From assembly GCA_041907665.1 (NCBI GenBank), contig JAYRGW010000001.1, positions 93,915-157,914 on the forward strand: a DNA stretch of 64,000 nt, given 5' to 3'. A program made the translations under genes and the position numbers. Each line of letters opens with the position of its first letter. Position 1 is the first letter of the stretch. This document shows, piece by piece, positions 52,600 through 64,000 of this stretch. The notes under the pieces were generated by a model that had not been told where the DNA came from, made no database searches, and was given only the letters and a program-made list of their open reading frames with translations. Origin of the DNA: Bacteroidaceae bacterium (GTDB lineage Bacteria > Bacteroidota > Bacteroidia > Bacteroidales > Bacteroidaceae).

Positions 52600-53436
52600 A
52601 TGAAAAAAGAAATTATAATTCAGTATTACAACAGTTTTGAAAAAGCTGCATTGGAATTGGAAGGTGTAGAATGTTGGAGTGCCAGAGATTTGCAACAACT
52701 GTTAGGTTATAGTAAATGGGAAAATTTTTCGAAAGTAATTGATAAAGCCAAGGAATCTTGCAAAAATGCCGAACAACTTGTAGCTGATCATTTTCCTGAC
52801 GTCAAGAAAACGATCGCAATGCCTAAAGGAGCTGAAAAACAAATAGATGACATTATGCTTACTCGTTATGCTTGCTATCTCATAGCCCAAAATGGCGACC
52901 CACGCAAAGTACAGATTGCGTTTGCACAGACCTATTTTGCCGTGCAAACTCGTAAAGCAGAGTTGATAGAAAAACGGTTGTTAGAAATTGAACGTATCAA
53001 GGCTCGTACGAAATTGCAGGAGACAGAGAAAAGACTTTCAGGGGTGTTATACGAGCATGGTATTGACAATAATGGCTTTGCATTGATCCGCTCAAAGGGC
53101 GATTTAGCTTTGTTTCATCTGAACACTTTGCAAATGAAACGAAAAATGGGAGTACCGGTCAGTCGTGCTGTTGCCGATTTCTTACCTACGATTAGTATAA
53201 AAGCAAAAGATTTTGCGGCCGAGATGACAAACGTTAATGTACAACAAAAAGATCTTTATGGTGAAGCCAACATTAGCAAAGAACATGTCGATAATAATAA
53301 AGCTGTGCGCCAAATGATGATAGATCGCGGCATTATACCGGAAGAACTCCCTGCGGCAGAAGACGTGAAAAAAGTGGAGAGGCGATTAGTCAGCGAAGAG
53401 AAGAAAGCTTTGACAAATAGGAATAAGAAAAAATAA
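52600..53436 (+). CDS. dinD: DNA damage-inducible protein D (DinD-like)
   Basis: 278 aa. The N-terminus ([42 protein letters not shown]) and the segment [17 protein letters not shown] are typical of DinD. Confidence 0.75.
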
Positions 53437-53466: not shown

Positions 53467-54126
53467 CACTTTTACTCTGATGTATGTTCTATCATAGAAA
53501 GAGCAGGATATGGCAAGCAGTTAATGAACAATCTGGTTAAGGAACTTACTGATAGTTATGGTAAAGGGTTTGACCGCATATCATTGTATAATTATTTGAA
53601 GTTTTATCGCTATTTTCCAAAGATTGTTGGCGCAGTGAGTCAACAATCAGAAAAAGTAGGCGTAGCGAGTCAATAATTCAAAGTTGGAGAAACACTGAGC
53701 ACCAAATTGCTGCCGTGGACACATTATAGGGAGTTAATCAGAGTCGATAATGCGCAGGCAAGAAAATGGTATGAGCAAGAAGCACTACATGAAATGTGGA
53801 GTACAAGAACTCTTCATCGAAATATTGCATCGCAGTATTACAGTCGCTTGTTGCAATCAGTACATAAAGAAAAGGTAACCGAGGAAATGCACAAGTTGAC
53901 GGCATCCATGCAACAAGACAGGTTAGAGTTTCTTAAAAATCCTGTAGTTGCAGAATTTCTTGGCTTACAGTCTAATTCCGATTTCACTGAATCAGAGTTA
54001 GAGGGTAGCATAATCAGTCATTTACAGAAATTCATCATGGAGATGGGCAAAGGATTTGCCTTTGTGGGCAGACAGCAACATATACGCACTGATATGGGAG
54101 ATTTTTATATTATTGGTTTAACGTGA
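53467..54126 (+). pseudogene. Degraded YhcG-like (DUF1016) PDDEXK nuclease gene
   Basis: A single frame reads ..IIERAGYGKQLMNNLVKELTDSYGKGFDRISLYNYLKFYRYFP..Q* (TAA at 53674-53676), then ..LLPWTHYRELIRVDNAQARKWYEQEA..GFAFVGRQQHIRTDMGDFYI. The N-terminal portion appears internally deleted. The frame ends where the PD-(D/E)xK core should continue. Confidence 0.65.
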
Positions 54127-54766
54127 CCTTTATACCCAGCTGAAGCGCAGCTGAGATCTTTTCGATGAATGCCTTTTTCATCGGGTTATTGCTATGAGTT
54201 ATTAGAAGCCAGCCATCGCCTAATTCTTTTTGACTTTTCCCGTATTTAGCATCTCTGCGATTGGAAATTACGGGCACTTTGCAGAATTTTAGATGATGTT
54301 CTTCTACTACCTTTCGAACCCTAGTCACACCAATTCTTTTCACTACCTTAACAAAAGTGTCTACTGCCTTTCTCTCGGCTATTATTGTTCCATCAGGAAA
54401 GAATACTGCCATATCCCTTGCCGGTCCACGTTTAATCTTGTCATCGTTATGATTTTCATGCTTACCATGTTCCACTTCCGGATCAACAACTATTTCTTTT
54501 GCATCTGGCATATCAGCGGTAAAATTGCGCTTACGACTTAAGTGTACACTCAGTGGTTGCCCCGGCATATAGTCTACTACCAGTACCAATTCACGTTGTA
54601 CCGGTTGGAGTGCAGGTTCAATACTTTTTGTCAATATGGGGAGAATCTCTTTTTTGATAATTTCTTCCTCTAGTTCGTTTGCTTTCTTTTCAAGGTTCTC
54701 ATCAACAGGAAGACCTTCTTTGCGAAGGGTTTCCATAGCTTTATATAGGTTGTCTAATCTGCTCAT
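54110..54766 (-). CDS. Hypothetical protein (218 aa): N-terminal coiled coil, acidic/His linker, basic C-terminal domain
   Basis: It is a clean ORF with no motif I can assign. Its first 19 codons have a vestigial duplicate at 56091-56147. Confidence 0.6.
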   Translation of the reverse strand: MSRLDNLYKAMETLRKEGLPVDENLEKKANELEEEIIKKEILPILTKSIEPALQPVQRELVLVVDYMPGQPLSVHLSRKRNFTADMPDAKEIVVDPEVEHGKHENHNDDKIKRGPARDMAVFFPDGTIIAERKAVDTFVKVVKRIGVTRVRKVVEEHHLKFCKVPVISNRRDAKYGKSQKELGDGWLLITHSNNPMKKAFIEKISAALQLGIKVTLNQ

Positions 54767-54788
54767 AATTTAATGTTCTAATATTGAT

Positions 54789-54914
54789 ATGTACATGAAA
54801 TAGCGGTTTTATGTACACGTCCTATGTGATGTGTACGCGAAAGTCCAGCTTTATGTACATGAGTAATCTGCCATGTACATGAATATTTGGTTTTATGTAT
54901 GAATTGTACCACTT
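54789..54914. repeat. Degenerate 42-bp tandem repeat x3, each unit carrying two ATGTACAYG boxes
   Basis: Boxes start at 54789, 54811, 54831, 54853, 54873 and 54895, with spacing alternating 22/20 bp. ATGTACAT is an 8-bp palindrome. The third unit runs into the 3' end of the Fic CDS. Confidence 0.7.
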
Positions 54915-56050
54915 ACCGATTCTATCATAGGAACAGTATCTTTAGACAATTCAGCATGATTCAAAAATAGATTTATCAGCTCTGTATTTATATAGTAATT
55001 CACTTGGCCGATTTTTTCTTTATGTAGCAAACCTGCATCTACAATCATATTCAGGTACTTGGAGGCAGTTCTTCGTTCTACCATCATATCCCTTACCATG
55101 AATTCTATCTTTGTATATGGATGAAAGAACAAATTATTCAATAGTTCATGTTTATATTGCTTATCGAATAGGGGGCGTAAGACACTTTTATAGTAATTCA
55201 TCAAACCAGATATACCTTTTACTAAGCTGATAGTTTCAGTAGCTGTTTCTTCTATACCTTTTAAGATAAATAGAATCCATTCAATCCATTCTTTAGCATT
55301 GTCTGTGCCTTTATCACGAATGGTTTGAATTAATCTATAATACTCACCTTTATTATGGGTGATATATCGGCTAAGATATAATATGGGTAAATCCAATAAA
55401 CCGGTTGTTACCAAATACAGAACGTTCACAATACGTCCAGTACGTCCGTTTCCATCATAGAATGGATGTATGCTTTCAAATTGATGATGGATGATTGCCA
55501 TCTTTATCAAGGGATCCAATTCAGACATTGCTTCATCATTGATGAAAGTTTCAAGATTTTGCATATACTCAATAATTTGTGCCCCATCTTGGGGAGGAGT
55601 ATATACGACTTTTCCATCACTGCGTTCAAGTTTGGTACCTGGCGCAGTTCTGAATCCTGCCCTGTTGTGTTCCAACTCAGTTTGAATCTGTTTGATGATA
55701 TTATTTGTAAGCAGCTTTTTCTTTCTAACTTGTTGGAATCCTTTTTCAATCGCTTCACGATATGCAAGCACTTCTTTTGTGGAAGCATTAATAATACTTT
55801 GCTTCACATTTAAATCAGCTTTATAGAGGTCATCCTGGGTGGTAACGATATTCTCAACTTCAGAGCTGTCCTTTGCTTCTTGTAAGGTAAGCGTACTGAT
55901 AAGTATGCGCTCATTGGGTATTGTTAGGGCAACACCCTTCAATTCAGCCAACTTTCGGTGCGAACGAGTTAGTTGTTTTAAGACCTCCTTTGTTTCCAAA
56001 TCATAAGGAAGAGGGAGAGTTGGAATATTGTATTGCTTATTCATAATCAT
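54893..56050 (-). CDS. Fic-family protein (class II, N-terminal inhibitory helix) with C-terminal winged-helix domain
   Basis: 385 aa. It has the Fic active-site motif HPFYDGNGRTGR and an upstream inhibitory motif of the [ST]xxxE[GN] type (SSEVEN). Confidence 0.85.
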   Translation of the reverse strand: MIMNKQYNIPTLPLPYDLETKEVLKQLTRSHRKLAELKGVALTIPNERILISTLTLQEAKDSSEVENIVTTQDDLYKADLNVKQSIINASTKEVLAYREAIEKGFQQVRKKKLLTNNIIKQIQTELEHNRAGFRTAPGTKLERSDGKVVYTPPQDGAQIIEYMQNLETFINDEAMSELDPLIKMAIIHHQFESIHPFYDGNGRTGRIVNVLYLVTTGLLDLPILYLSRYITHNKGEYYRLIQTIRDKGTDNAKEWIEWILFILKGIEETATETISLVKGISGLMNYYKSVLRPLFDKQYKHELLNNLFFHPYTKIEFMVRDMMVERRTASKYLNMIVDAGLLHKEKIGQVNYYINTELINLFLNHAELSKDTVPMIESVSGTIHT

Positions 56051-56090
56051 TATTTTACTCTGTTGATTATTACTTGATTTTATTACGCGA

Positions 56091-56147
56091 AAGACTTCCT
56101 CTACGAAGGGTTTCCATGGCTTTATATATATAGTCTAATCTACTTAC
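56091..56147 (-). pseudogene. Vestigial 5' fragment homologous to the start of the 218-aa gene
   Basis: The minus strand reads VSRLDYIYKAMETLRRGSL, against MSRLDNLYKAMETLRKEGL at 54711-54767. About 45 of 56 nt are identical by hand alignment. The start codon is lost and a stop follows soon after. Confidence 0.6.
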
Positions 56148-57096
56148 CTTTTTTATTTTTTAATTCTTCTATACCCTGTTTTATCAATTTACTTTTATCA
56201 TCACTAGAGCAACAGTATACTTGAATATAGCCACATAAAAAAAAGCATATAAAACTAATGAGAAGAGCTAAAGGTCTTAACTGTTCTACATCTAAAAGAA
56301 ATGGCTTTGAACGATTAGAAGCATGAGATAATAAGCCTCTATACTCTATTAAGATATAGACAATTCCATCAAAGTCTAGTTCCTTTTGCTTTTTCTTACA
56401 TTCTTGTAATATCCATGAATAATTCGAGCCTTTTTTATCTTCATTTTCAAGCATCTGTAACGCACTTAGAACGCATAATTCTAGCAATTCAGAATTCTTG
56501 AAGTTTTGGGTCACCTTATCCCGATGAAACTGTCCATCGGCAAACATAAACTCTAACATCATGAAATAGTTTATGAATGCAAAATAGTAGTCATTATCGT
56601 TGAAAAAATTACGTGCTTGTCTATAATAGCTGAATGGTATATGAGCCTCTGGTAACATTTTTCTAAATATTACTAAATTTGATAAGTTAGAATTACTTAC
56701 ATATTCTGTTGAAGTTTTTGGGATTCTATTTCGTTTTAATGAAGTCATAGGAATGCTTCCTTTTTCTTCTTCTGTTTCATAAATCCATTTAACTTCCAAC
56801 TCGTCAATATGTATTTTTTTTACTTCAAAATTAAATGCTCCCATTGCCTCTATATAGTACAACCATTGTTCCATATCTTTATAAGCTTCAGGCTTTGTTG
56901 CTTCTATATTTGGAGTATTATTTTTAACATAAATTTTTGGTGCGACATCCTTATAATCAATAATAGGTTTAGTGATACTTATATATTTTTTACCATTATC
57001 TTCAAATATCCTAAATTCATAAGGATAAAGTTTTGCCGAAACGGAATCATTTAGCAAAAAGTTACCTTCTATTTCTGCTATTATTTGTATTTTCAT
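56140..57096 (-). CDS. Hypothetical 318-aa protein: beta-rich N-domain plus helical C-domain with an Rx4H (HEPN-like) motif
   Basis: Its ATG overlaps the methyltransferase TGA (ATGA at 57093-57096). The C-terminal half contains YRGLLSH followed by a long hydrophobic helix (LALLISFICFFLCGYIQ). No Walker or other catalytic motif is recognisable. The gene is very AT-rich. Confidence 0.65.
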   Translation of the reverse strand: MKIQIIAEIEGNFLLNDSVSAKLYPYEFRIFEDNGKKYISITKPIIDYKDVAPKIYVKNNTPNIEATKPEAYKDMEQWLYYIEAMGAFNFEVKKIHIDELEVKWIYETEEEKGSIPMTSLKRNRIPKTSTEYVSNSNLSNLVIFRKMLPEAHIPFSYYRQARNFFNDNDYYFAFINYFMMLEFMFADGQFHRDKVTQNFKNSELLELCVLSALQMLENEDKKGSNYSWILQECKKKQKELDFDGIVYILIEYRGLLSHASNRSKPFLLDVEQLRPLALLISFICFFLCGYIQVYCCSSDDKSKLIKQGIEELKNKKGK

Positions 57097-60000
57097 AAAT
57101 TTTCCTCCATATATTCTTTTTCCGTAATTGATGTTTCTGGGTCTACAATTTTTACCTCATCGTAAGTGAGGCCATAAAGATGGTATACTAAACGGTCAAT
57201 TTCTTGCTCTTCCGCTGTTGTATCAGTTTCAGGATTGTTTTGATATGCTTTTATAATCGTATCAATCAACAAATATATTCGGCTCTTATCATTAGGTATT
57301 ACTATTGGTAACTTTTTTGTATTGGCAATTAATACTTTTTGAAATAGTACTTTTTGAACATCCAAATATTTATTTTTATGATAGAAACTCATCAATCTAG
57401 AATTAAGTATTGCCAAAATAATCATTAATTGATTAGAATCGTTTGTCCTTGATAATAAAGAAAAACCAATTTGAGTAAAATAATGGGGTTTATTAGAATA
57501 GCCAGCAATAATTCTTAGCCCATCACCAACAATTTGGCGCACAATTATTTTCTCATTTGTAAAAAACCTTCTTTCTCTAGGAGCACCTAACCATTCACCA
57601 TAATGCAAATACTCCTCAACTTCATTACTAACAAAATATGGATGTATATTTTTACCAGAGATAAGAGGCACATAGCTGTTATCAATCTTTGCAGTAGAAT
57701 GGAAAATGCGATTTTTTATTGTATTTGTATCATGACCTTTATATTTGTCATAAGGCGTAATACCTAATGATGTGATTACGTAATCTTCTAATGGGTGACC
57801 TCTCTTTTTTATCTTTGACAATAAACTAAGAGTTTCTTTATTTGCAAAAATATTAAATCGTAAATCTTTATCTTTTTCCCAATTTTGTTTATCAAATGAT
57901 TCCAACTGAATTTTTTGAAGAGATACTTTTTCATCATTGCTAAAACAATACGCATAAACATCTTCAGTAATTAAATGTTTACTCAATAATAATATTATTG
58001 TTTCTACACTTGCTGATTGAAACACATGATCTGGTAGTTTTATTATTTGAATAACGCTATCAATTATTAGCTTCCTAATTTTAAAATATGATTCATTCAT
58101 AAGAATGGAGTTAGGATTAATATAACATAAGACCCCTTGGTTAGAACATAAATTGTAACCTTTTTCTATAAAGATAGAATATAAATTTATTCGATTCTCA
58201 GTTGTCTTAAATATATTAAAATACATTTTGACATCTTCACTTGATAATCCTTTTATATCAATATATGGTGGATTTCCAATTACAATATCAAACCCGTCAT
58301 TAACTCCAAACATCCATTCTGGGTCGAAAAATGGCGAAAAAGCATTTTGATCAAACATATCCCAAGATGCAAGTTGCTGTGCTTCTTCGTTACCTACAGC
58401 TCCACACTCTTTAAGCATTTCTGCAATTTCCAAACGTAAGTCATTTACTATTTGGCGATATTTACGTTTGGTTTTATACTTAGAAGCAAAGATTTTATGT
58501 TTGGCTACTTTAAGTTCGTTTTCCTTTGTTCTTATCGCATCTGAATCAAATAATGAAGCATCCTTTTTGTCTAATCCGATAAGCGTATTAGCAGCAACAA
58601 ACTTGGCTTCTAGGTTTGGTAATGGACGAATTCCGAAGTTGTCGGCTGGACTGGTATTAGTGTTTTGGTCAACAACCAATGAAATGAAGAAACGGAGTTT
58701 GCTTATTTGGATGGCAATAGGCTGAATATCTACACCATAAATACAGTTCTCTATCAGATATAGTTTGCGGGCATAGTCGGGGCGATTAACGTTCTCATCA
58801 AAGCTGCGTTCAATATCTGCGATCATTTCACTACGCTCTTCTTTTGACGCATTGCGATAAGCGTCTGACGTCTCATCTATAGCTTGATCCATCATCATAT
58901 CCTTCCACTGCACATTGTCAGGATCTATGCGTCCCTGTATATGTACCATTTGTTGGAGTATTCCCATAGGGAATGCACCCGAACCACATGCGGGGTCAAG
59001 AATTTTGCAATCGTAAAGTGATTGCATAATGCTAAGCCGTTGTTCATCCGTGAAATTCACTGGTTCATCAGAGTATTGCAACAGTTGCCGAAATTGTGGT
59101 TCCAAGTCTTCACCAACTGTTCGTTTTAGATGAGCAATCAAACTTTCATCTACCATATATTGAACAATTTCTCTTGGTGTGTAGAAAGAACCGGTCTGCT
59201 TACGGGCTGTAGTTTGTGTTTCCGGATTAAACGAAGCAAGTAAGTTCTCAAATACTTTTCCTAGTAGTTCCGGATCGAGTGAAACTTCTTTGTCAAAAGG
59301 TGTATTCTCTTCTACAGTAAAGTTATATCGTTTCAGGATGTCAATAATACCACGCGCAGAAACTTTCTTTTTCTTCCTATCTCCATACCATATCGAAAGG
59401 TCAATGTTCTTACCAGCTTCATCGCCAAAGAATAAAAAATCGGGAACGACAAGTGACTTGCGGATAGCTTCACGGTCACTGAATCCATCATAATACATAC
59501 CTTTGTCTTTTTCATCCAGGCAATCGAATAAACCACCATTCAAAAATGGCACAGTACGATTGGCTATATCAACAAACAACTGCGGGTTACTGAAGTAATA
59601 TTCATAGCGCATCAACTTATTATTGTCATAGTCACCACGGCCATTACGAAAATGCCGTTCAGAAATTTCCGTGCTGTCTTCTGCCGTAATAGGACTGTTT
59701 AGCATCGCAAAGAAAAGATTCTGTAGAATGGCTTTGTAGTATTTACTTTCAACTGATTTTTCTTTGAATAGGCCTTCTGTCTTATGGGGGTCAAATCCTT
59801 CGATTAAATTATCTGCTATATATTTCTCGTCAAAGAATTCATCGGGTATAAGATGGCGTTGCTTTAGGAACCACACAAAGATGAGACGAGTGATAAGGCG
59901 AATGGCACTTTCGTTATTGAATTTATCATCATCTGTATTGTCATTGATATCATTTGGAAATCGGATAATCTGAATCGCCCAGGCATACCAATCACTAAGC

Positions 60001-60521
60001 TCGCTATAAAATTCTTTAGTAAGCACTTCCACAGAGAAGCGACTGTGCAGGTCTTCATCATTAACTACACGCCCCTTTTCATTGAGATATTTATTGGGGG
60101 TGTAATAGGCAATGCCCTTACCAAGAAAATAGCTATACCTACGTGGATTGCTATAATTGCGTGATATGCGGGACGCTCCTTCAGCCACATCGAGCGTTAT
60201 CTCGATGAAAGAAAAACGGTAATTGTCATTACTGTCTTCGGGTACAAAGACAACTAAAGCGCGGTCTTCCGTTTCATCGGCCAACATACGAAAAGCCTCC
60301 TTTGACAAGGCTACCCTTGCATCATGAGTTGATGTATGCTTCATTTCATATATCACCAAGTCTAATGAAGTAGAAGAACCCAATTTCACTGCTTCTGTCG
60401 TATATTTCATTTGGGTGGAGAGAGTTACCTCTTCCGTGACGGGAACAAAATCCTCCGGCAAAAAACTGTTTTGTAGGAAACTAACGAACTCCTGACGGTT
60501 ATATGCTTTATTAAATTCCAT
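57093..60521 (-). CDS. Large gamma-class N6-adenine DNA methyltransferase with C-terminal target-recognition domain (Eco57I/PglX-like)
   Basis: The motif order is FYTPREIV, then DPACGSGAF (SAM binding), then GNPPYI (catalytic NPPY), followed by about 400 aa of TRD-like sequence. The track ORF starts at a GTG (60548). The first ATG (60521, MEFNKAYN) lies 7 nt after the helicase stop. Confidence 0.85.
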   Translation of the reverse strand: MEFNKAYNRQEFVSFLQNSFLPEDFVPVTEEVTLSTQMKYTTEAVKLGSSTSLDLVIYEMKHTSTHDARVALSKEAFRMLADETEDRALVVFVPEDSNDNYRFSFIEITLDVAEGASRISRNYSNPRRYSYFLGKGIAYYTPNKYLNEKGRVVNDEDLHSRFSVEVLTKEFYSELSDWYAWAIQIIRFPNDINDNTDDDKFNNESAIRLITRLIFVWFLKQRHLIPDEFFDEKYIADNLIEGFDPHKTEGLFKEKSVESKYYKAILQNLFFAMLNSPITAEDSTEISERHFRNGRGDYDNNKLMRYEYYFSNPQLFVDIANRTVPFLNGGLFDCLDEKDKGMYYDGFSDREAIRKSLVVPDFLFFGDEAGKNIDLSIWYGDRKKKKVSARGIIDILKRYNFTVEENTPFDKEVSLDPELLGKVFENLLASFNPETQTTARKQTGSFYTPREIVQYMVDESLIAHLKRTVGEDLEPQFRQLLQYSDEPVNFTDEQRLSIMQSLYDCKILDPACGSGAFPMGILQQMVHIQGRIDPDNVQWKDMMMDQAIDETSDAYRNASKEERSEMIADIERSFDENVNRPDYARKLYLIENCIYGVDIQPIAIQISKLRFFISLVVDQNTNTSPADNFGIRPLPNLEAKFVAANTLIGLDKKDASLFDSDAIRTKENELKVAKHKIFASKYKTKRKYRQIVNDLRLEIAEMLKECGAVGNEEAQQLASWDMFDQNAFSPFFDPEWMFGVNDGFDIVIGNPPYIDIKGLSSEDVKMYFNIFKTTENRINLYSIFIEKGYNLCSNQGVLCYINPNSILMNESYFKIRKLIIDSVIQIIKLPDHVFQSASVETIILLLSKHLITEDVYAYCFSNDEKVSLQKIQLESFDKQNWEKDKDLRFNIFANKETLSLLSKIKKRGHPLEDYVITSLGITPYDKYKGHDTNTIKNRIFHSTAKIDNSYVPLISGKNIHPYFVSNEVEEYLHYGEWLGAPRERRFFTNEKIIVRQIVGDGLRIIAGYSNKPHYFTQIGFSLLSRTNDSNQLMIILAILNSRLMSFYHKNKYLDVQKVLFQKVLIANTKKLPIVIPNDKSRIYLLIDTIIKAYQNNPETDTTAEEQEIDRLVYHLYGLTYDEVKIVDPETSITEKEYMEENL

Positions 60522-60528
60522 ATTATTT

Positions 60529-63500
60529 CTATTTTTGTAGTTCTTCACTTAAAATTAAGGTCTCTTCGCTATCATCCACTCTATTTTGAGTGAGGATGAT
60601 GCGAGCCAAATATTCCGTTTTTATTTTTTTCGGAAGCTTGGTTGCGTCTTTTAATGCCAATTGATTGATAAAACGTATTTCAAAACCTGATAAGGCGTCT
60701 GCTTTGACAACCGACATTAAATCAAACAAATAGTCGGCTGGCAATAGTTCGTTTTTTTGAAGAACCTTTATTTTTGATACAGCATTCAGAATATCTTTCT
60801 CATTGCGGTCTTTTACATCACTGCTGAATAGGGCTGATTTGACTTTTTGGTAAACGTCATCAAAGTCTTTACTAAAATCTACAGGCTCTTCTTCTCGTTT
60901 AGCAGCGAATAGAGATAAAGCTGTTTCGGCAGAAATCATAACAGGAACAATGGATTTGCTTCCTATTTTAAAGACGAAATCATTTCCTTTCTTTCCAAAC
61001 AGAAGCACACCTTGTTGAGGTTTTTTAATATCACGAGCAGTGCGGGCACGATGTGGCATCAGCAATGCCTTTTCGTAAGCTTCCGTTCCTTTCAGTTCGT
61101 TCAAAAGTTTCCGATAAGGTGTATCCCAAGAAGATTCTTCATTGCGTGTAAATTCTTTGCGGTAACGTTCCTTGAAGTATGCTTGGACTTCTTCATCTTT
61201 GGTCAATGCTCTGGTATCTTCTCCCATGATGGCATGAATCATAGCCATTTTTAGTGTGGAGATTTCTTTGGTGCGGGTTTCTGCTTCACCAACGTCCGTT
61301 GGGAAGTAATTGTAAATATAGAGTTCTTCGAATACTTTTTTGTTAATACGGTTGATTCGTCCAATGCGTTGAATGACACGAGTTGGATTATAAGGAATGT
61401 CATAATTGAATATAGCACCGGCACGATGGAGATTGTAACCTTCAGAAATCGCATCGGTTGCTATTAATATGTGATAATCATTTTGCTGCAACGAAGATTT
61501 CAGACCTGCATCAAAATTGGCTCTTATACGGTCTTTGTTGATTTGTGTAGCATCTGCCGATGTATATTTCATAACGGGAAGACCGGCTTTCTGAAGTGCT
61601 TTTCCTAAATAATTAACAGTATCGGCATATTCTGAAAATACAATCAATTTTCGATTGGGGTCACTCTTCATCATTTTCCGAATTATCTTGATGAATGAGT
61701 CAAGTTTCGGGTCAAAATGAATGGTATTATCCGTCCCAAACCATTGTTCGCGCAAGTTATTAAGAAGTTGAAGGTCTGATTTCACATTTTCAATGAAGTC
61801 ATCCTTCACATATTTCATGTCGATCTCGAAGAAGCCTTTAGTCTCGTATTTATCAAAAATGTCTTCGATTTCTTCTATTCCGTCTTCTGTGGATTCATAG
61901 AAATCGTTTACATCAGGAAGATTACCTTTCTTGTATACAGGTATTTTATGGCGTGTCTCCACCCATTTTAAGATATGTTCCGAAGATTGAATCATATAGC
62001 CCAATGAGGATTGGAATGCGGCGACAGAACTTTCAAATCGACCAACTAACAAGTGGCGCATGAAACTTGCCACATTAGCTTGTCGTCCAATCAACAAATT
62101 GAAATTGATTCCGGTTTTTTCTTCCAGTTCCTTGGCCAGTTTCTCTTTCATCTCCTCGTAAACGTATAGAACAGGAGAATAACGAGCAGCCTTGAATCTA
62201 TAAATATCGGTATTGGTGTTTTCGGATTTGCTAATACGGTCTAATGTCGTTAAATATAAATCTTTTAATTCACTTAGGTCGTAAGTAAGCTCTGCAGGAT
62301 CATTCGGGATGACAAGCTTAATACCCTGCTGCTTTAGATCGGCTGCATATTCATCAATCTCTTGCAAATCCAGGCGTGAGCGACGCACCACCAATGGGAT
62401 GATAATGGAACGAATATTCTTTGAAATATTTTTCACCTCGGCTTTAACTTCTTCCTCCGAGCTTTTCCCTTTTCGTTGAGCTTCACGCAAATCACGATAT
62501 TTGTCTATAAGATTTTTGAACGCTGCTCCTAGATTTTCCACAGTCTTAAGTGTAGAGCGTGAAGGTATTTGGAAGAGCTTTATTAATGAGTATATATCAG
62601 CTGGCTGATTATTGAATGGTGTTGCGGTTAACAATAATACTTTATTGCCCGAACAAAGATTATGAAGCAGAGCGTAATCTTGCGTATATTCATTGCGGAA
62701 GCGATGGGCTTCATCAATGATAATCAGAAATTGTTCATTCTCTTTTACCAGTTCCTCATAATGGAGTAACGCATTTTCAATTTTACCGGCACTAAACACG
62801 GAAGCGGTGAAGCCAAATTCATCTCGATAATCTTCCCATTGTTTATATAAGTGAGGTGGACAGACAACTATTGTTCTTAATTTTAGATTACGTGCAATGG
62901 TTGAAGCAATAATACTTTTTCCAAGACCTACCACATCGGCCACAATAGCGCCATTATGATTTTCCAGTGCATTTAATGCCATTTGAACTGCGTCTGTCTG
63001 ATATCTTAAATTGGAATATTTACCATCAGTAATATCATAGGGGGTAAGCAGGTTCTCTTTAGTAGGGATGGCAAAGAATTCATGAAGCACACGGATATAT
63101 ATTAAGAATGGGGAATAAATGTGATCGTACCAAATGCGAGTCATTACTTTATTATTCCATTCATCTACATTGTCTTTGTTTGCAACTACAACAGAGTCTT
63201 TCCAAAGTTCTTCAAATATTTTTTGACCTTCCTCATAATCTGTTTTATCGTTAAAACGAGCATTTAGTTCCAATCGTCCGGTTAAACCTTGATAAGAAAG
63301 GTTGCTTGAACCTGTAATTACCACTCCTGGCAATTCGCCATTTTCGTTCATTTGGTCATTATAAGCGAACAGATACATTTTGGAGTGGCATGGCTCAAGA
63401 GTCTTTCTTATTTCCAGTGACCCATCTACAATTTTTCCATAGAACATCTTGAATTGTTCCAATTTCTCGACCGTATCCAAGAAGTCTGTATCGTTGAATA

Positions 63501-63780
63501 TTTTTACAAACTGTTTGTAATATTCTTCTTTAATGTTACTTCGTGAGGGTAAGGTTTGTCTGAAGTTTTCTACTTCACAGATATGTTTAGTTATTTGCAA
63601 ATCTACATCAAGTCCGACGAGAATACGAATATTTTTATCTTTTAGGTTATTGGATAATTCAATATAACCGGAATAGTAGAAATATCCCACAAGTATATCA
63701 ACAGTATCTGTCTTTGGAAGAATGCCATTAATAATATCTGAAAGAAATTTTTCTTTATTTGTAATGAAATTGCTACTCAT
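60529..63780 (-). CDS. PLD-family nuclease domain fused to an SNF2-type superfamily-2 helicase
   Basis: 1083 aa. The N-terminus has an HKD motif (CHSKMYLF...VITGSSNLS). Helicase motifs are motif I (VVGLGKS), motif II (IIIDEAHRFRN), motif III (LLLTATPFNN) and motif VI (QRIGRINR). Confidence 0.85.
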   Translation of the reverse strand: MSSNFITNKEKFLSDIINGILPKTDTVDILVGYFYYSGYIELSNNLKDKNIRILVGLDVDLQITKHICEVENFRQTLPSRSNIKEEYYKQFVKIFNDTDFLDTVEKLEQFKMFYGKIVDGSLEIRKTLEPCHSKMYLFAYNDQMNENGELPGVVITGSSNLSYQGLTGRLELNARFNDKTDYEEGQKIFEELWKDSVVVANKDNVDEWNNKVMTRIWYDHIYSPFLIYIRVLHEFFAIPTKENLLTPYDITDGKYSNLRYQTDAVQMALNALENHNGAIVADVVGLGKSIIASTIARNLKLRTIVVCPPHLYKQWEDYRDEFGFTASVFSAGKIENALLHYEELVKENEQFLIIIDEAHRFRNEYTQDYALLHNLCSGNKVLLLTATPFNNQPADIYSLIKLFQIPSRSTLKTVENLGAAFKNLIDKYRDLREAQRKGKSSEEEVKAEVKNISKNIRSIIIPLVVRRSRLDLQEIDEYAADLKQQGIKLVIPNDPAELTYDLSELKDLYLTTLDRISKSENTNTDIYRFKAARYSPVLYVYEEMKEKLAKELEEKTGINFNLLIGRQANVASFMRHLLVGRFESSVAAFQSSLGYMIQSSEHILKWVETRHKIPVYKKGNLPDVNDFYESTEDGIEEIEDIFDKYETKGFFEIDMKYVKDDFIENVKSDLQLLNNLREQWFGTDNTIHFDPKLDSFIKIIRKMMKSDPNRKLIVFSEYADTVNYLGKALQKAGLPVMKYTSADATQINKDRIRANFDAGLKSSLQQNDYHILIATDAISEGYNLHRAGAIFNYDIPYNPTRVIQRIGRINRINKKVFEELYIYNYFPTDVGEAETRTKEISTLKMAMIHAIMGEDTRALTKDEEVQAYFKERYRKEFTRNEESSWDTPYRKLLNELKGTEAYEKALLMPHRARTARDIKKPQQGVLLFGKKGNDFVFKIGSKSIVPVMISAETALSLFAAKREEEPVDFSKDFDDVYQKVKSALFSSDVKDRNEKDILNAVSKIKVLQKNELLPADYLFDLMSVVKADALSGFEIRFINQLALKDATKLPKKIKTEYLARIILTQNRVDDSEETLILSEELQK

Positions 63781-64000
63781 ACCTTTTAATTTATTTAAGC
63801 GACAGCTGTATTTTGTTTTTCATCCGCTTACGGACTGTAATCTCAGTTCTACTTAATTGCTCTGCCAACCATTTTATTGGTTTGTCGTTTTCAGCCTAAG
63901 CCATCTTAATCCTATTTTTAGCTATTGTTCGCATATCGTTTGATAATAACTTATCTATTTACGATACAAAATTAGCAGAATATGTTTATAAATAAGTGTA

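Follow-up and report, generated by a model that had tools for sequence, protein, structure and literature searches.

The subject of this analysis is a putative defence locus at the end of a 64,000-nucleotide (nt) stretch of DNA from a Bacteroidaceae bacterium (GenBank assembly GCA_041907665.1, contig JAYRGW010000001.1), to which we refer as the window. Three intact genes are located on its minus strand between positions 56140 and 63780: HEL (60529-63780, 1083 aa), which encodes a SNF2-type helicase with a PLD (HKD) nuclease domain; MT (57093-60521, 1142 aa from its ATG), which encodes an N6-adenine methyltransferase of the Eco57I/TaqI_C type; and gene 3, here called G3 (56140-57096, 318 aa). 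The TAG stop codon of HEL is followed by 7 nt and then by the ATG of MT, and the TGA of MT overlaps the ATG of G3 as ATGA; an alternative GTG start, located 27 nt upstream of the ATG, would extend MT to 57093-60548, i.e. to 1151 aa. An earlier note on this DNA (the original prediction) had described the three genes as one module that resembles restriction-modification (RM) systems. The coordinates of the open reading frames (ORFs) confirm the three genes and the spacings that it gave, all the motifs that it quoted for HEL and MT have been located in the translations, and its assignment of MT to the gamma-class adenine methyltransferases agrees with Pfam (Eco57I), although the protein is 1142 and not 1140 aa long. 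The base composition is uneven, with a GC content of 27-29% in the block that consists of the target recognition domain (TRD) of MT and G3 (27% and 29%, respectively), against 37-40% in HEL and in the core of MT.

The N-terminal part of HEL contains a single HKD domain (residues ~25-204; Pfam PLDc_2, 2e-10, and RE_NgoFVII, 1e-7), which is followed by a SNF2-type ATPase motor of superfamily 2 (SF2; residues ~258-830; Pfam SNF2-rel_dom, 9e-16, ResIII and Helicase_C) and, beyond residue ~830, by an uncharacterised C-terminal region. The nuclease motifs are located at positions 132-134 (HSK) and 157-160 (GSSN), and the motor motifs at positions 285-289 (GLGKS), 356-359 (DEAH), 385-388 (TATP) and 804-811 (QRIGRINR). 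The elements HxK, GSSN, VGLGK, DExH, (S/T)ATP and QRxGRxxR, the last four of which are helicase motifs I, II, III and VI, are invariant from Bacteroidales to Thermus and Nostoc; therefore, both activities are under selection, and HEL is predicted to be a motor-nuclease effector. Its top PADLOC match is the generic “HKD+Snf2” model C3a139 (3e-40), and the fusion of the two domains has already been catalogued as cd09178, as quoted in PMC9881135. Profile and sequence searches of the PDB with HEL have returned generic SNF2 matches only, and no Pfam match to a modified-base reader or a TRD has been found in the protein. Upstream of HEL, a pseudogene of an Xre-type helix-turn-helix (HTH) regulator is located at 63797-63934 on the minus strand (BLASTP against the 74-aa HTH protein of Parabacteroides distasonis, locus L018, E=5e-8), with an in-frame TAG and a lost C-terminus; in many loci, an intact relative precedes HEL or the pair AlbA_2-HEL, and the remnant marks the usual start of the operon.

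Three parts can be distinguished in MT: a conserved part (residues 1-750; 58272-60521, minus strand), which comprises an N-domain that matches no family, then a helical spacer, and finally the methyltransferase core up to the NPPY motif; a hypervariable TRD region (residues 751-1090; 57252-58271, minus strand), which contains a match to TaqI_C (1e-14); and a C-terminal tail (residues 1091-1142 and the stop codon; 57093-57251, minus strand). The catalytic motifs are FYTPREIV (446-453), DPACGSGAF (509-517) and NPPY (750-753), the Pfam matches are Eco57I (1e-31), N6_Mtase, MmeI_Mtase and TaqI_C, and the top PADLOC match is REase_MTase_IIG (7e-61); PDB profile and sequence searches have returned generic matches to TaqI and Type I methyltransferases only. 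The three parts differ sharply in their conservation: residues 1-750 are 67-99% identical among the orthologues from Bacteroidales, while residues 751-1090 are 15-32% identical to every orthologue, including that of the sister locus L029, where the core is 95-99% identical; the last 52 residues are 55-63% identical in all orthologues, including that of locus L011, where MT is otherwise ~27% identical, and this tail is a candidate docking segment.

The N-terminal 450 residues of MT have no match in Pfam, and the only residues that resemble a PD-ExK nuclease motif are D63, E68 and K70, of which D63 (D/G) and K70 (K/R/G) vary among six orthologues. Since the N-domain has no conserved PD-(D/E)xK triad, MT is not expected to be a complete Type IIG enzyme by itself; it looks like a methylase of the PglX/DrmMI/MtsC type, whose nuclease has been lost or was never present. 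A probable relative, and a probable experimental anchor, is the REBASE enzyme Pin17FIII of Prevotella intermedia 17F, a 1117-aa “Type IIG” protein whose gene has a SNF2/RAD54 helicase on its upstream side and an inverted partial copy on its downstream side (PMC5608340), and which methylates GGYGAB to N6-methyladenine (m6A) when expressed alone in E. coli (PMC5608340). We base this relationship on the matching architecture of the loci: locus L122 of Prevotella nigrescens has the same layout as that of P. intermedia 17F and has been used as its proxy, and its inverted TRD cassettes begin at the position that matches residue ~746 of MT, at the NPPY motif. A [quoted passage not shown] is likewise listed as a programmed-inversion locus by Milman et al. 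(PMC9881135); in the window, a search for invertible TRD cassettes has found none.

The association of HEL with MT has been examined by a scan of metagenome contigs with HEL, which has yielded 392 confirmed relatives, the best 80 loci of which (64-92% identity) have been analysed. An MT orthologue is located downstream of HEL in all 55 of the loci with at least 3.6 kb of sequence after HEL; in six of these, one ORF is located between the two genes, encoding either an AlbA_2/HATPase_c_4 protein or a ~330-aa unknown protein. Distant pairs, at 25-33% identity, occur in Prevotella, Nostoc, Thermus and Allomeiothermus, with the gene orders HTH-HEL-MT (Prevotella nigrescens), HEL-AlbA_2-MT (Prevotella sp. 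oral taxon 299), HTH-MT-183 aa-418 aa-HEL (Nostoc) and MT-hypothetical protein-HEL (Thermus and Allomeiothermus). In addition, matches to HEL and MT are located close together on the same plasmids in Calothrix, Microcystis, Planktothrix and several haloarchaea; these are co-located matches only, and they suggest that haloarchaeal plasmids also carry the pair. HEL and MT are thus a conserved, widespread, restriction-like pair, adjacent in all loci with enough sequence, and both this linkage and the domains support the proposal of the original prediction that a translocating PLD nuclease is coupled here with a modification/specificity subunit. The pairing has been noted in passing in 2017 and in 2023; its architecture is therefore catalogued and twice noticed, and the pair is still unnamed and uncharacterised.

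A protein that combines AlbA_2 (Schlafen-like), HATPase_c_4 and winged HTH (wHTH) domains recurs in HEL-MT loci, where it is located upstream of the pair, between its two genes or downstream (L006, 1668-3227; L010, 3674-5581; L011, 11626-13128; L014, 11045-12934; L121, 10729-12123); no such protein is present in the examined part of the window.

The comparison with the named defence systems has been concerned with the genes that define them (for MANTIS and the BREX-related (BR) systems, PMC12839542 and 10.64898/2026.09.23.753747; for Hma, PMC11232893). Neither DUF499, DUF3780, DUF1998/YprA, PglZ nor BrxC has been found among the window genes scanned for partners (53707-63780) or among the neighbours scanned in orthologous loci; for the window genes, this agrees with the original prediction, which had reported no PglZ, BrxC, DrmA or DrmB there. 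The flanks of the 80 HEL-MT loci show no conserved partner of ~1000 aa. The window ends 220 nt upstream of HEL, and the orthologous loci, with flanks of up to 10 kb, indicate that no partner is missing beyond position 64000: close orthologues that are located at other sites (L030, L031) have housekeeping genes upstream of HEL, and the loci of Parabacteroides distasonis and Marseilla have only an HTH and/or an AlbA_2 protein there. Because their defining genes have not been found, HEL-MT is not a MANTIS/BR, Hma, DISARM or BREX system; the original prediction had set aside the last three, and the gene set of MANTIS/BR is equally absent from the genes scanned. Based on its domains, HEL-MT nevertheless resembles the helicase-plus-methylase core that is common to all four. 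The earlier claim that the locus “fits no named system” therefore holds as far as a name is concerned and is too strong otherwise, given that the HKD+SNF2 fusion is catalogued (PADLOC C3a139; cd09178) and the pairing is listed (PMC9881135); the architecturally matching Pin17FIII locus (PMC5608340) and the combination of PLD-helicase and methyltransferase in MANTIS (10.64898/2026.09.23.753747) weaken it further.

Two independent Logan assemblies of the locus (L001 and L029) both break ~450-500 nt upstream of HEL, which suggests a repeat or a variable junction just past window position 64000.

The nearest characterised relative is MANTIS (also Gao_RL or Type-2 BREX-related, with the components MtsA-D), where, as in HEL-MT, an N-terminal HKD/PLD domain is fused to an SF2/SNF2 helicase and accompanied by an N6-adenine methyltransferase; MtsD is a PLD-SF2 nuclease whose two chains dimerise around a common active site, and it acts with the methyltransferase on unmethylated asymmetric sites (10.64898/2026.09.23.753747). 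By analogy with MtsD, the single HKD domain of HEL implies that HEL, too, forms a dimer in which the active site is shared. In order to load its methyltransferase, MANTIS depends on two further proteins, MtsA (a DUF499 AAA+ ATPase) and MtsB (a DUF3780 protein), neither of which is present in the window genes or orthologous loci scanned, whereas the likely MT relative Pin17FIII methylates without helpers. The NCBIfam model of a PLD anti-phage protein (“phospholipD_antiphage”), which may or may not represent MtsD, gives HEL 125 bits against a cutoff of 1100. Class 1 DISARM shares with HEL-MT a SNF2 helicase (DrmD), an Eco57I-type adenine methylase (DrmMI) and a PLD nuclease (DrmC); DrmD is the best NCBIfam match of HEL (NF038317; PADLOC 2e-39) and DrmMI is among the matches of MT, but the scores are far below the equivalog cutoffs (164.8 against 610 bits for DrmD; 76 bits, over a partial match, for PADLOC DrmMI), the PLD nuclease of DISARM is a separate protein and not fused to the SNF2 motor, and its YprA-like helicase DrmA and DUF1998 protein DrmB have not been found here. 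BREX (types 1-6) and Type-3 BR differ in having the PglZ phosphatase and the BrxC/PglY ATPase, neither of which has been found, and MT reaches 85 bits on NCBIfam PglX, where the cutoff is 500; Hma (Type-1 BR) has a C-terminal PD-(D/E)xK nuclease in place of the N-terminal PLD domain of HEL, its HmaA matches HEL over the helicase C-lobe only (PADLOC), and no DUF499 protein has been found here.

Classical restriction enzymes offer further parallels. CglI/NgoAVII and SauUSI also couple a PLD-family nuclease with an SF2 helicase-like motor (as noted above, HEL matches RE_NgoFVII), but in CglI/NgoAVII, a B3-like DNA reader forms part of the PLD protein, the motor is encoded separately and the partner is a C5 methylase, while SauUSI, a Type IV enzyme, reads methylated cytosine with its own TRD and has no methylase; the C-terminal TRD of the DUF3427 type, seen in SauUSI-like enzymes, is not matched in HEL (Pfam), and a methylase always adjoins HEL. 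The Type ISP (LlaGI/LlaBIII), Type III and Type IIG/IIL enzymes (MmeI, Cj0031, Pin17FIII) are alike in their gamma-class methyltransferase, single TRD and asymmetric sites, as well as in helicase-driven communication and the logic of hemimethylation, and MT has an MmeI/Eco57I-type core with a TaqI_C TRD. They differ from HEL-MT, where the activities are split over two proteins and the nuclease is of the PLD type, not Mrr or PD-(D/E)xK: Type ISP enzymes carry nuclease, helicase and methyltransferase on one chain, Type III enzymes have nuclease and helicase in Res, next to a beta-class Mod in place of the separate gamma-class, Eco57I-type MT, and Type IIG enzymes unite an endonuclease domain with methyltransferase and TRD in one polypeptide; the latter two are present in MT, in whose N-domain a conserved nuclease triad is lacking.

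The third gene has a different distribution. The conservation of the three-gene neighbourhood, when checked across orthologous loci, did not hold: G3 follows MT in only one of the 44 HEL-MT loci with at least 1.5 kb of sequence beyond MT, and the first position after MT is occupied by 22 different families, including ApeA, DUF2971, SPFH, a nucleoside-deoxyribosyltransferase-like protein, a weakly SLATT_5-like protein and a 304-aa unknown protein, with nothing before the gene P218 (described below) in some loci. TIR proteins come after the SPFH and 304-aa genes, and a bona fide ApeA is located in this slot in locus L078 (ApeA_NTD1, 8e-33; HEPN_Apea, 1e-13). The clearest case of exchange is the sister locus L029, located at the same chromosomal site, where HEL and the MT core are 95-99% identical and three other ORFs replace G3: the DNA homology between the two loci stops at position 58263, inside the codons of NPPY (58263-58274), and resumes at position 56146, just past the G3 stop. 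Together with the low GC content, these breaks suggest that the TRD and G3 have been imported as a block. In a metagenome-assembled genome (MAG) of an uncultured Bacteroides sp. (L009, 9604-12780), HEL and most of MT have been lost, while G3 (89% identical), the SoFic-like gene described below and a truncated P218 have been kept; the leftover of MT is a 121-aa ORF with a ~60-aa remnant of the MT tail, joined to the sequence that is located upstream of HEL in the window.

Elsewhere, relatives of G3 occur alone, in a Lachnospira prophage, after a TIR gene, and behind unrelated large proteins in capsule loci. The distant relatives (38-40% identity) of the capsule/polysaccharide loci L002 (4131-12219) and L110 (3745-8966) are preceded, respectively, by ORFs of 626 aa (weak NERD), 531 aa (PLDc_2), 206 aa and 591 aa, with a 412-aa ORF after the G3 relative, and by a 1216-aa protein; these neighbourhoods may be other uncharacterised defence modules. 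When clustered at 90% identity, the family comprises 118 clusters; at 50% identity (E <=1e-3), it has 649 representatives. G3 overlaps MT (ATGA) in Marseilla as it does in the window, and it starts 6 nt after MT in locus L011. G3 is thus exchangeable cargo in a variable slot and not a core subunit, so that, of the RM-like module originally proposed, the coupled pair of HEL and MT stands and the three-gene unit does not.

No match to G3 has been found in Pfam, PADLOC, NCBIfam or PHROGs. In the AlphaFold2 (AF2) model, the protein consists of a beta-rich N-domain (residues 1-121) and an all-helical C-domain (residues 135-317), with a mean predicted local distance difference test score (pLDDT) of 81 at full length and of 84 for the C-domain alone, for which the predicted template modelling score (pTM) is 0.82. 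Among 62 members of the family, at 17-67% identity, R253 and H258 alone are invariant; they form an Rx4H motif (RGxLxH; codons at 56323-56340, minus strand), and E83, R159, E182 and G254 come close to invariance. Residues 242-257 form a helix in the AF2 models, which ends around R253..H258 and is followed by a loop, and E182 is located on the preceding core helix (170-185); in HEPN proteins, an Rx4-6H motif occurs where core helix 3 ends and the following loop starts, and an acidic residue occurs on helix 2 (Anantharaman et al., PMC3710099). G3 therefore agrees with the HEPN proteins in its motif and, in the AF2 model, in the placement of this motif on a helical bundle.

Searched member by member against Pfam, the 62 proteins match MauJ in 36 cases (best 9e-6; its membership of the HEPN clan could not be confirmed), HEPN_Apea in three (8e-4), HEPN_RiboL-PSP in two (3e-3) and HEPN_AbiV in one (0.03). 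A literature search for a link between MauJ and HEPN has returned nothing useful, PADLOC finds no consistent family among the 62 relatives, and PDB profile and sequence searches with G3 are non-significant (E >=0.03); an hhalign comparison of the family with the 395-aa slot protein of locus L044 is also not significant, though it aligns RGxLxH with RNSIVH. Taken together, the invariant motif and the modelled fold make it probable that G3 is a HEPN RNase. Its description as a protein of “unknown fold” is probably not right: although no fold match is significant, a beta-rich N-domain followed by a HEPN-type helical domain with an invariant Rx4H is the most likely architecture. The closest parallel is ApeA (Gao_Ape), which shares the beta-rich N-domain, the helical C-domain with Rx4H and the place in an RM operon, but is ~440 aa long, in comparison with the 318 aa of G3, which has no ApeA_NTD1, no PADLOC match and no curated HEPN match above threshold. 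ApeA is an oligomeric HEPN tRNA anticodon nuclease that is activated by 5'-phosphorylated deoxydinucleotides (10.64898/2026.01.26.701840), and HEPN genes that are embedded in RM operons (PrrC/RloC, AbiU2, AbiJ) are a long-known theme that parallels the position of G3 (PMC3710099).

We read the locus as a defence island of Bacteroidales, whose core is the two-gene, ATP-dependent, RM-like system HEL-MT, with G3 as a cargo effector, and we assign to this reading a probability of roughly 0.68. Its observed basis consists of the domains, the catalytic motifs, the linkage of HEL and MT across phyla, the hypervariability of the TRD and the absence of known partners among the scanned genes; the contact between MT and HEL, the translocation, the mode of cleavage and the rule of site orientation are what we infer from MANTIS MtsC/MtsD, SauUSI, CglI/NgoAVII and the Type III/ISP enzymes. 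According to this reading, MT would recognise a short, probably asymmetric sequence through its single TRD, methylate the host DNA and supply the specificity of the system. HEL would pair two HKD domains into one active site, a dimerisation that is forced as in BfiI, SauUSI and MtsD; it would be recruited or licensed at unmethylated sites, use ATP in order to move along or remodel the DNA, and cut the invading DNA. As in Type III, Type ISP and MANTIS systems, hemimethylation at asymmetric sites would probably mean that two sites, or sites in a given orientation, are required. G3 would most likely be a stand-alone, ApeA-like abortive-infection effector, i.e. a second line of defence, with the beta-rich N-domain sensing a signal and the HEPN domain cutting RNA such as tRNA; the SoFic-like gene and the alternatives to G3 in other loci would likewise be independent second-line effectors. 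The block of TRD and G3 would have been recombined in between the MT core, with the break at NPPY, and the 5' end of P218, and the SoFic-like gene would have been inserted later.

A number of points weigh against this reading. The HEL-MT pair is known from sequence alone, so that restriction, methylation and phage protection are predictions, and many of the 80 loci are likely near-clonal, so that their counts overstate independence. For MANTIS, an in vitro reconstitution of restriction is still lacking, and its MtsC depends on an AAA+ loader, because of which the analogy may fail for the loader-less HEL-MT. The HTH regulator upstream of HEL is a pseudogene here, so the expression of the operon may be altered or deregulated, and the translational coupling of G3 with MT could mean a functional tie in that sublineage. 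With regard to the HEPN assignment, the best MauJ E-value of the window G3 itself is 0.43; Foldseek is not significant (best E 0.1 for the full length, against the PDB and BFVD, and 3 for the C-domain, against the PDB, where Csm6 and a HEPN toxin appear only at E ~7-8); hhalign gives a probability of 0.2 for the alignment of the G3 family with the ApeA of L078; and the residue after the arginine of the motif is glycine, in place of the usual polar residue (N/D/H; PMC3710099).

One other explanation follows the three-gene module of the original prediction: HEL, MT and G3 would make up a single system of three obligate components, with G3 acting as a dedicated subunit, e.g. a sensor, an adaptor or a regulator of the nuclease. 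The ATGA overlap in the window and in Marseilla and the 6-nt spacing in L011 would fit such a subunit, as would the presence of G3 beside a HEL and an MT that have diverged to 30% and 27% identity in L011; we nevertheless regard it as very improbable, given that G3 occurs in one of 44 HEL-MT loci, that L029 exchanges it while HEL and the MT core stay 95-99% identical, and that its relatives are found alone, in the Lachnospira prophage, after a TIR gene, in capsule loci and, in L009, with HEL and most of MT gone. We give even less credence to HEL-MT being one piece of a larger system that already has a name (MANTIS/BR type 2, Hma, class 1 DISARM, ARMADA or BREX type 3), with the rest located beyond position 64000 or elsewhere: HEL does score on DrmD (165 bits; PADLOC 2e-39), HmaA, BrxH and “phospholipD_antiphage”, MT scores on PglX and DrmMI, and the window stops 220 nt upstream of HEL, but all of these scores are far below the curated cutoffs, the orthologous flanks of up to 10 kb contain housekeeping genes or only HTH/AlbA_2 genes upstream, the neighbours scanned include no DUF499, DUF3780, DUF1998, YprA or PglZ, and the HTH remnant at 63797-63934 marks the usual start of the operon.

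HEL and MT could also be independent neighbours, with HEL being a SauUSI-like, modification-dependent Type IV motor nuclease and MT an orphan, a Type IIG or a phase-variable methylase. The order of PLD and then SF2 in HEL is indeed that of SauUSI, methylases of this kind are called Type IIG by REBASE-style tools (PADLOC REase_MTase_IIG, 7e-61), Pin17FIII methylates by itself (PMC5608340), and the Prevotella relatives have invertible TRD cassettes, which are typical of phase-variable methylases. Set against this are the adjacency in 55 of 55 loci, its persistence across phyla at 25-33% identity, the tight spacing, the lack of a recognisable modified-base reader or TRD in HEL and of a conserved PD-(D/E)xK triad in the N-domain of MT, and the consideration that a methylation-dependent nuclease would be suicidal beside a methyltransferase of matching specificity; independence is, in our estimate, improbable. 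More room is left for G3 being something other than an RNase toxin, namely a HEPN-like scaffold that lacks activity, a regulator that binds nucleotides or ligands, or a protein with an anti-defence or immunity role: it has no significant structural or profile match to solved or curated HEPN proteins, glycine follows the arginine, and an antitoxin-like partner is not evident. This, too, is rather unlikely, since R253 and H258 are the sole invariant columns in 62 members and E182 is nearly invariant, the motif straddles the junction of a helix with the loop that follows, as in HEPN proteins, four Pfam families called HEPN-related occur among the weak matches (one of them being MauJ, with its unconfirmed clan membership), and a true ApeA with the same layout of beta-rich N-domain and HEPN domain is located in the same slot of L078.

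Beyond the preferred reading, i.e. a two-gene core with G3 as cargo, we tentatively put forward a broader picture, which is possible but on balance doubtful: HEL-MT may be a minimal, loader-free relative of MANTIS/DISARM, representing the ancestral or streamlined core of BREX-3, BR, DISARM-1 and ARMADA, in which the N6-adenine methylase, through its TRD, would guide a dimeric PLD-SNF2 motor nuclease with neither an AAA+ nor a YprA partner; in Bacteroidales, the TRD and a second-line effector (the G3 HEPN family, ApeA, TIR, DUF2971 or a SLATT-like protein) may be exchanged en bloc through recombination between the NPPY core and P218; and G3 may represent a new HEPN family of ~650 clusters, which fires on failed restriction or on the products of DNA breakdown. 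If HEL and MT restrict DNA alone, then the AAA+ loader, DUF3780 and YprA/DUF1998 would be dispensable parts of MANTIS/DISARM/BREX-type systems, and the pair would offer a simple two-protein model, in which an unmethylated site is passed on from a methylase to a PLD-SNF2 motor nuclease. In gut Bacteroidales, where one scan has given 392 confirmed metagenome matches, the pair is common, and it probably hinders phage therapy as well as attempts to modify these bacteria genetically; the variable slot after MT lends itself to searches for new abortive-infection effectors, and G3 itself represents a sizeable family that has no entry in PADLOC, Pfam, NCBIfam or PHROGs.

The remaining genes of the island are located downstream of G3. 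A SoFic-like Fic/AMPylase gene (54893-56050, minus strand; PADLOC SoFic, 2e-112) contains Fic_N, Fic and SoFic-like_C (Pfam), i.e. the three-domain architecture of SoFic, and scores 359 bits on the NCBIfam equivalog, under the cutoff of 550; it is a candidate for a separate, single-gene defence system. It is followed by P218 (54110-54766, minus strand, 218 aa), a highly conserved gene that usually closes the HEL-MT locus: 29 of 44 loci have it no more than 6 kb downstream of MT, and it retains 75-87% identity in loci whose HEL and MT are down to 30% and 27%, respectively. Its family counts 1434 matches, with ~80% identity across Parabacteroides, Phocaeicola, Prevotella and Odoribacter, and it is also found between two RhuM genes that end Type I RM islands and LlaJI/OLD/UvrD/Vsr islands, beside AAA_25 and HTH_17 genes (L021-L028). 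P218 has no Pfam match, also when 16 of its relatives are scanned, and no significant PDB match (E >=0.03); judging from its distribution, it is a general gene of the RM islands of Bacteroidales.

Just after the G3 stop, a 54-nt remnant of P218 is located at 56091-56144 on the minus strand, as a direct repeat of the 5' end of P218 (54710-54763, 83% identical). Because nothing separates G3 from P218 in Marseilla and L011, and because the gene and its remnant bracket the SoFic-like gene, the latter appears to have been inserted between G3 and P218. The 54-nt remnant has also been considered as a general attachment site for cassettes and rejected, its second copy having been detected only in loci with the order G3-SoFic-P218 (the window with its counterpart L001, and L009). 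The intergenic region between the SoFic-like gene and P218 contains three 27-nt repeats with a spacing of 42 nt (54789-54899) and about five ATGTACAT-like palindromes that are located ~21 nt apart; this array may be an array of operators for a regulator. A scan for Sigma-70 promoters and terminators has given counts at or below those expected from shuffled sequence, and is uninformative, since the promoters of Bacteroidales differ.

On the opposite strand, a truncated DUF1016/YhcG gene of the PD-(D/E)xK type (53707-54126, plus strand; Pfam YhcG_C and DUF1016_N; PADLOC PDC-S02, 1e-52) overlaps the 3' end of P218. The copy in the sister locus L029 is longer (208-237 aa), and the gene in the window is therefore a decayed component of the island that has suffered a local deletion. 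Beside this remnant, a Bro-N gene is located at 52600-53436, as annotated in the identical Logan contig L001.

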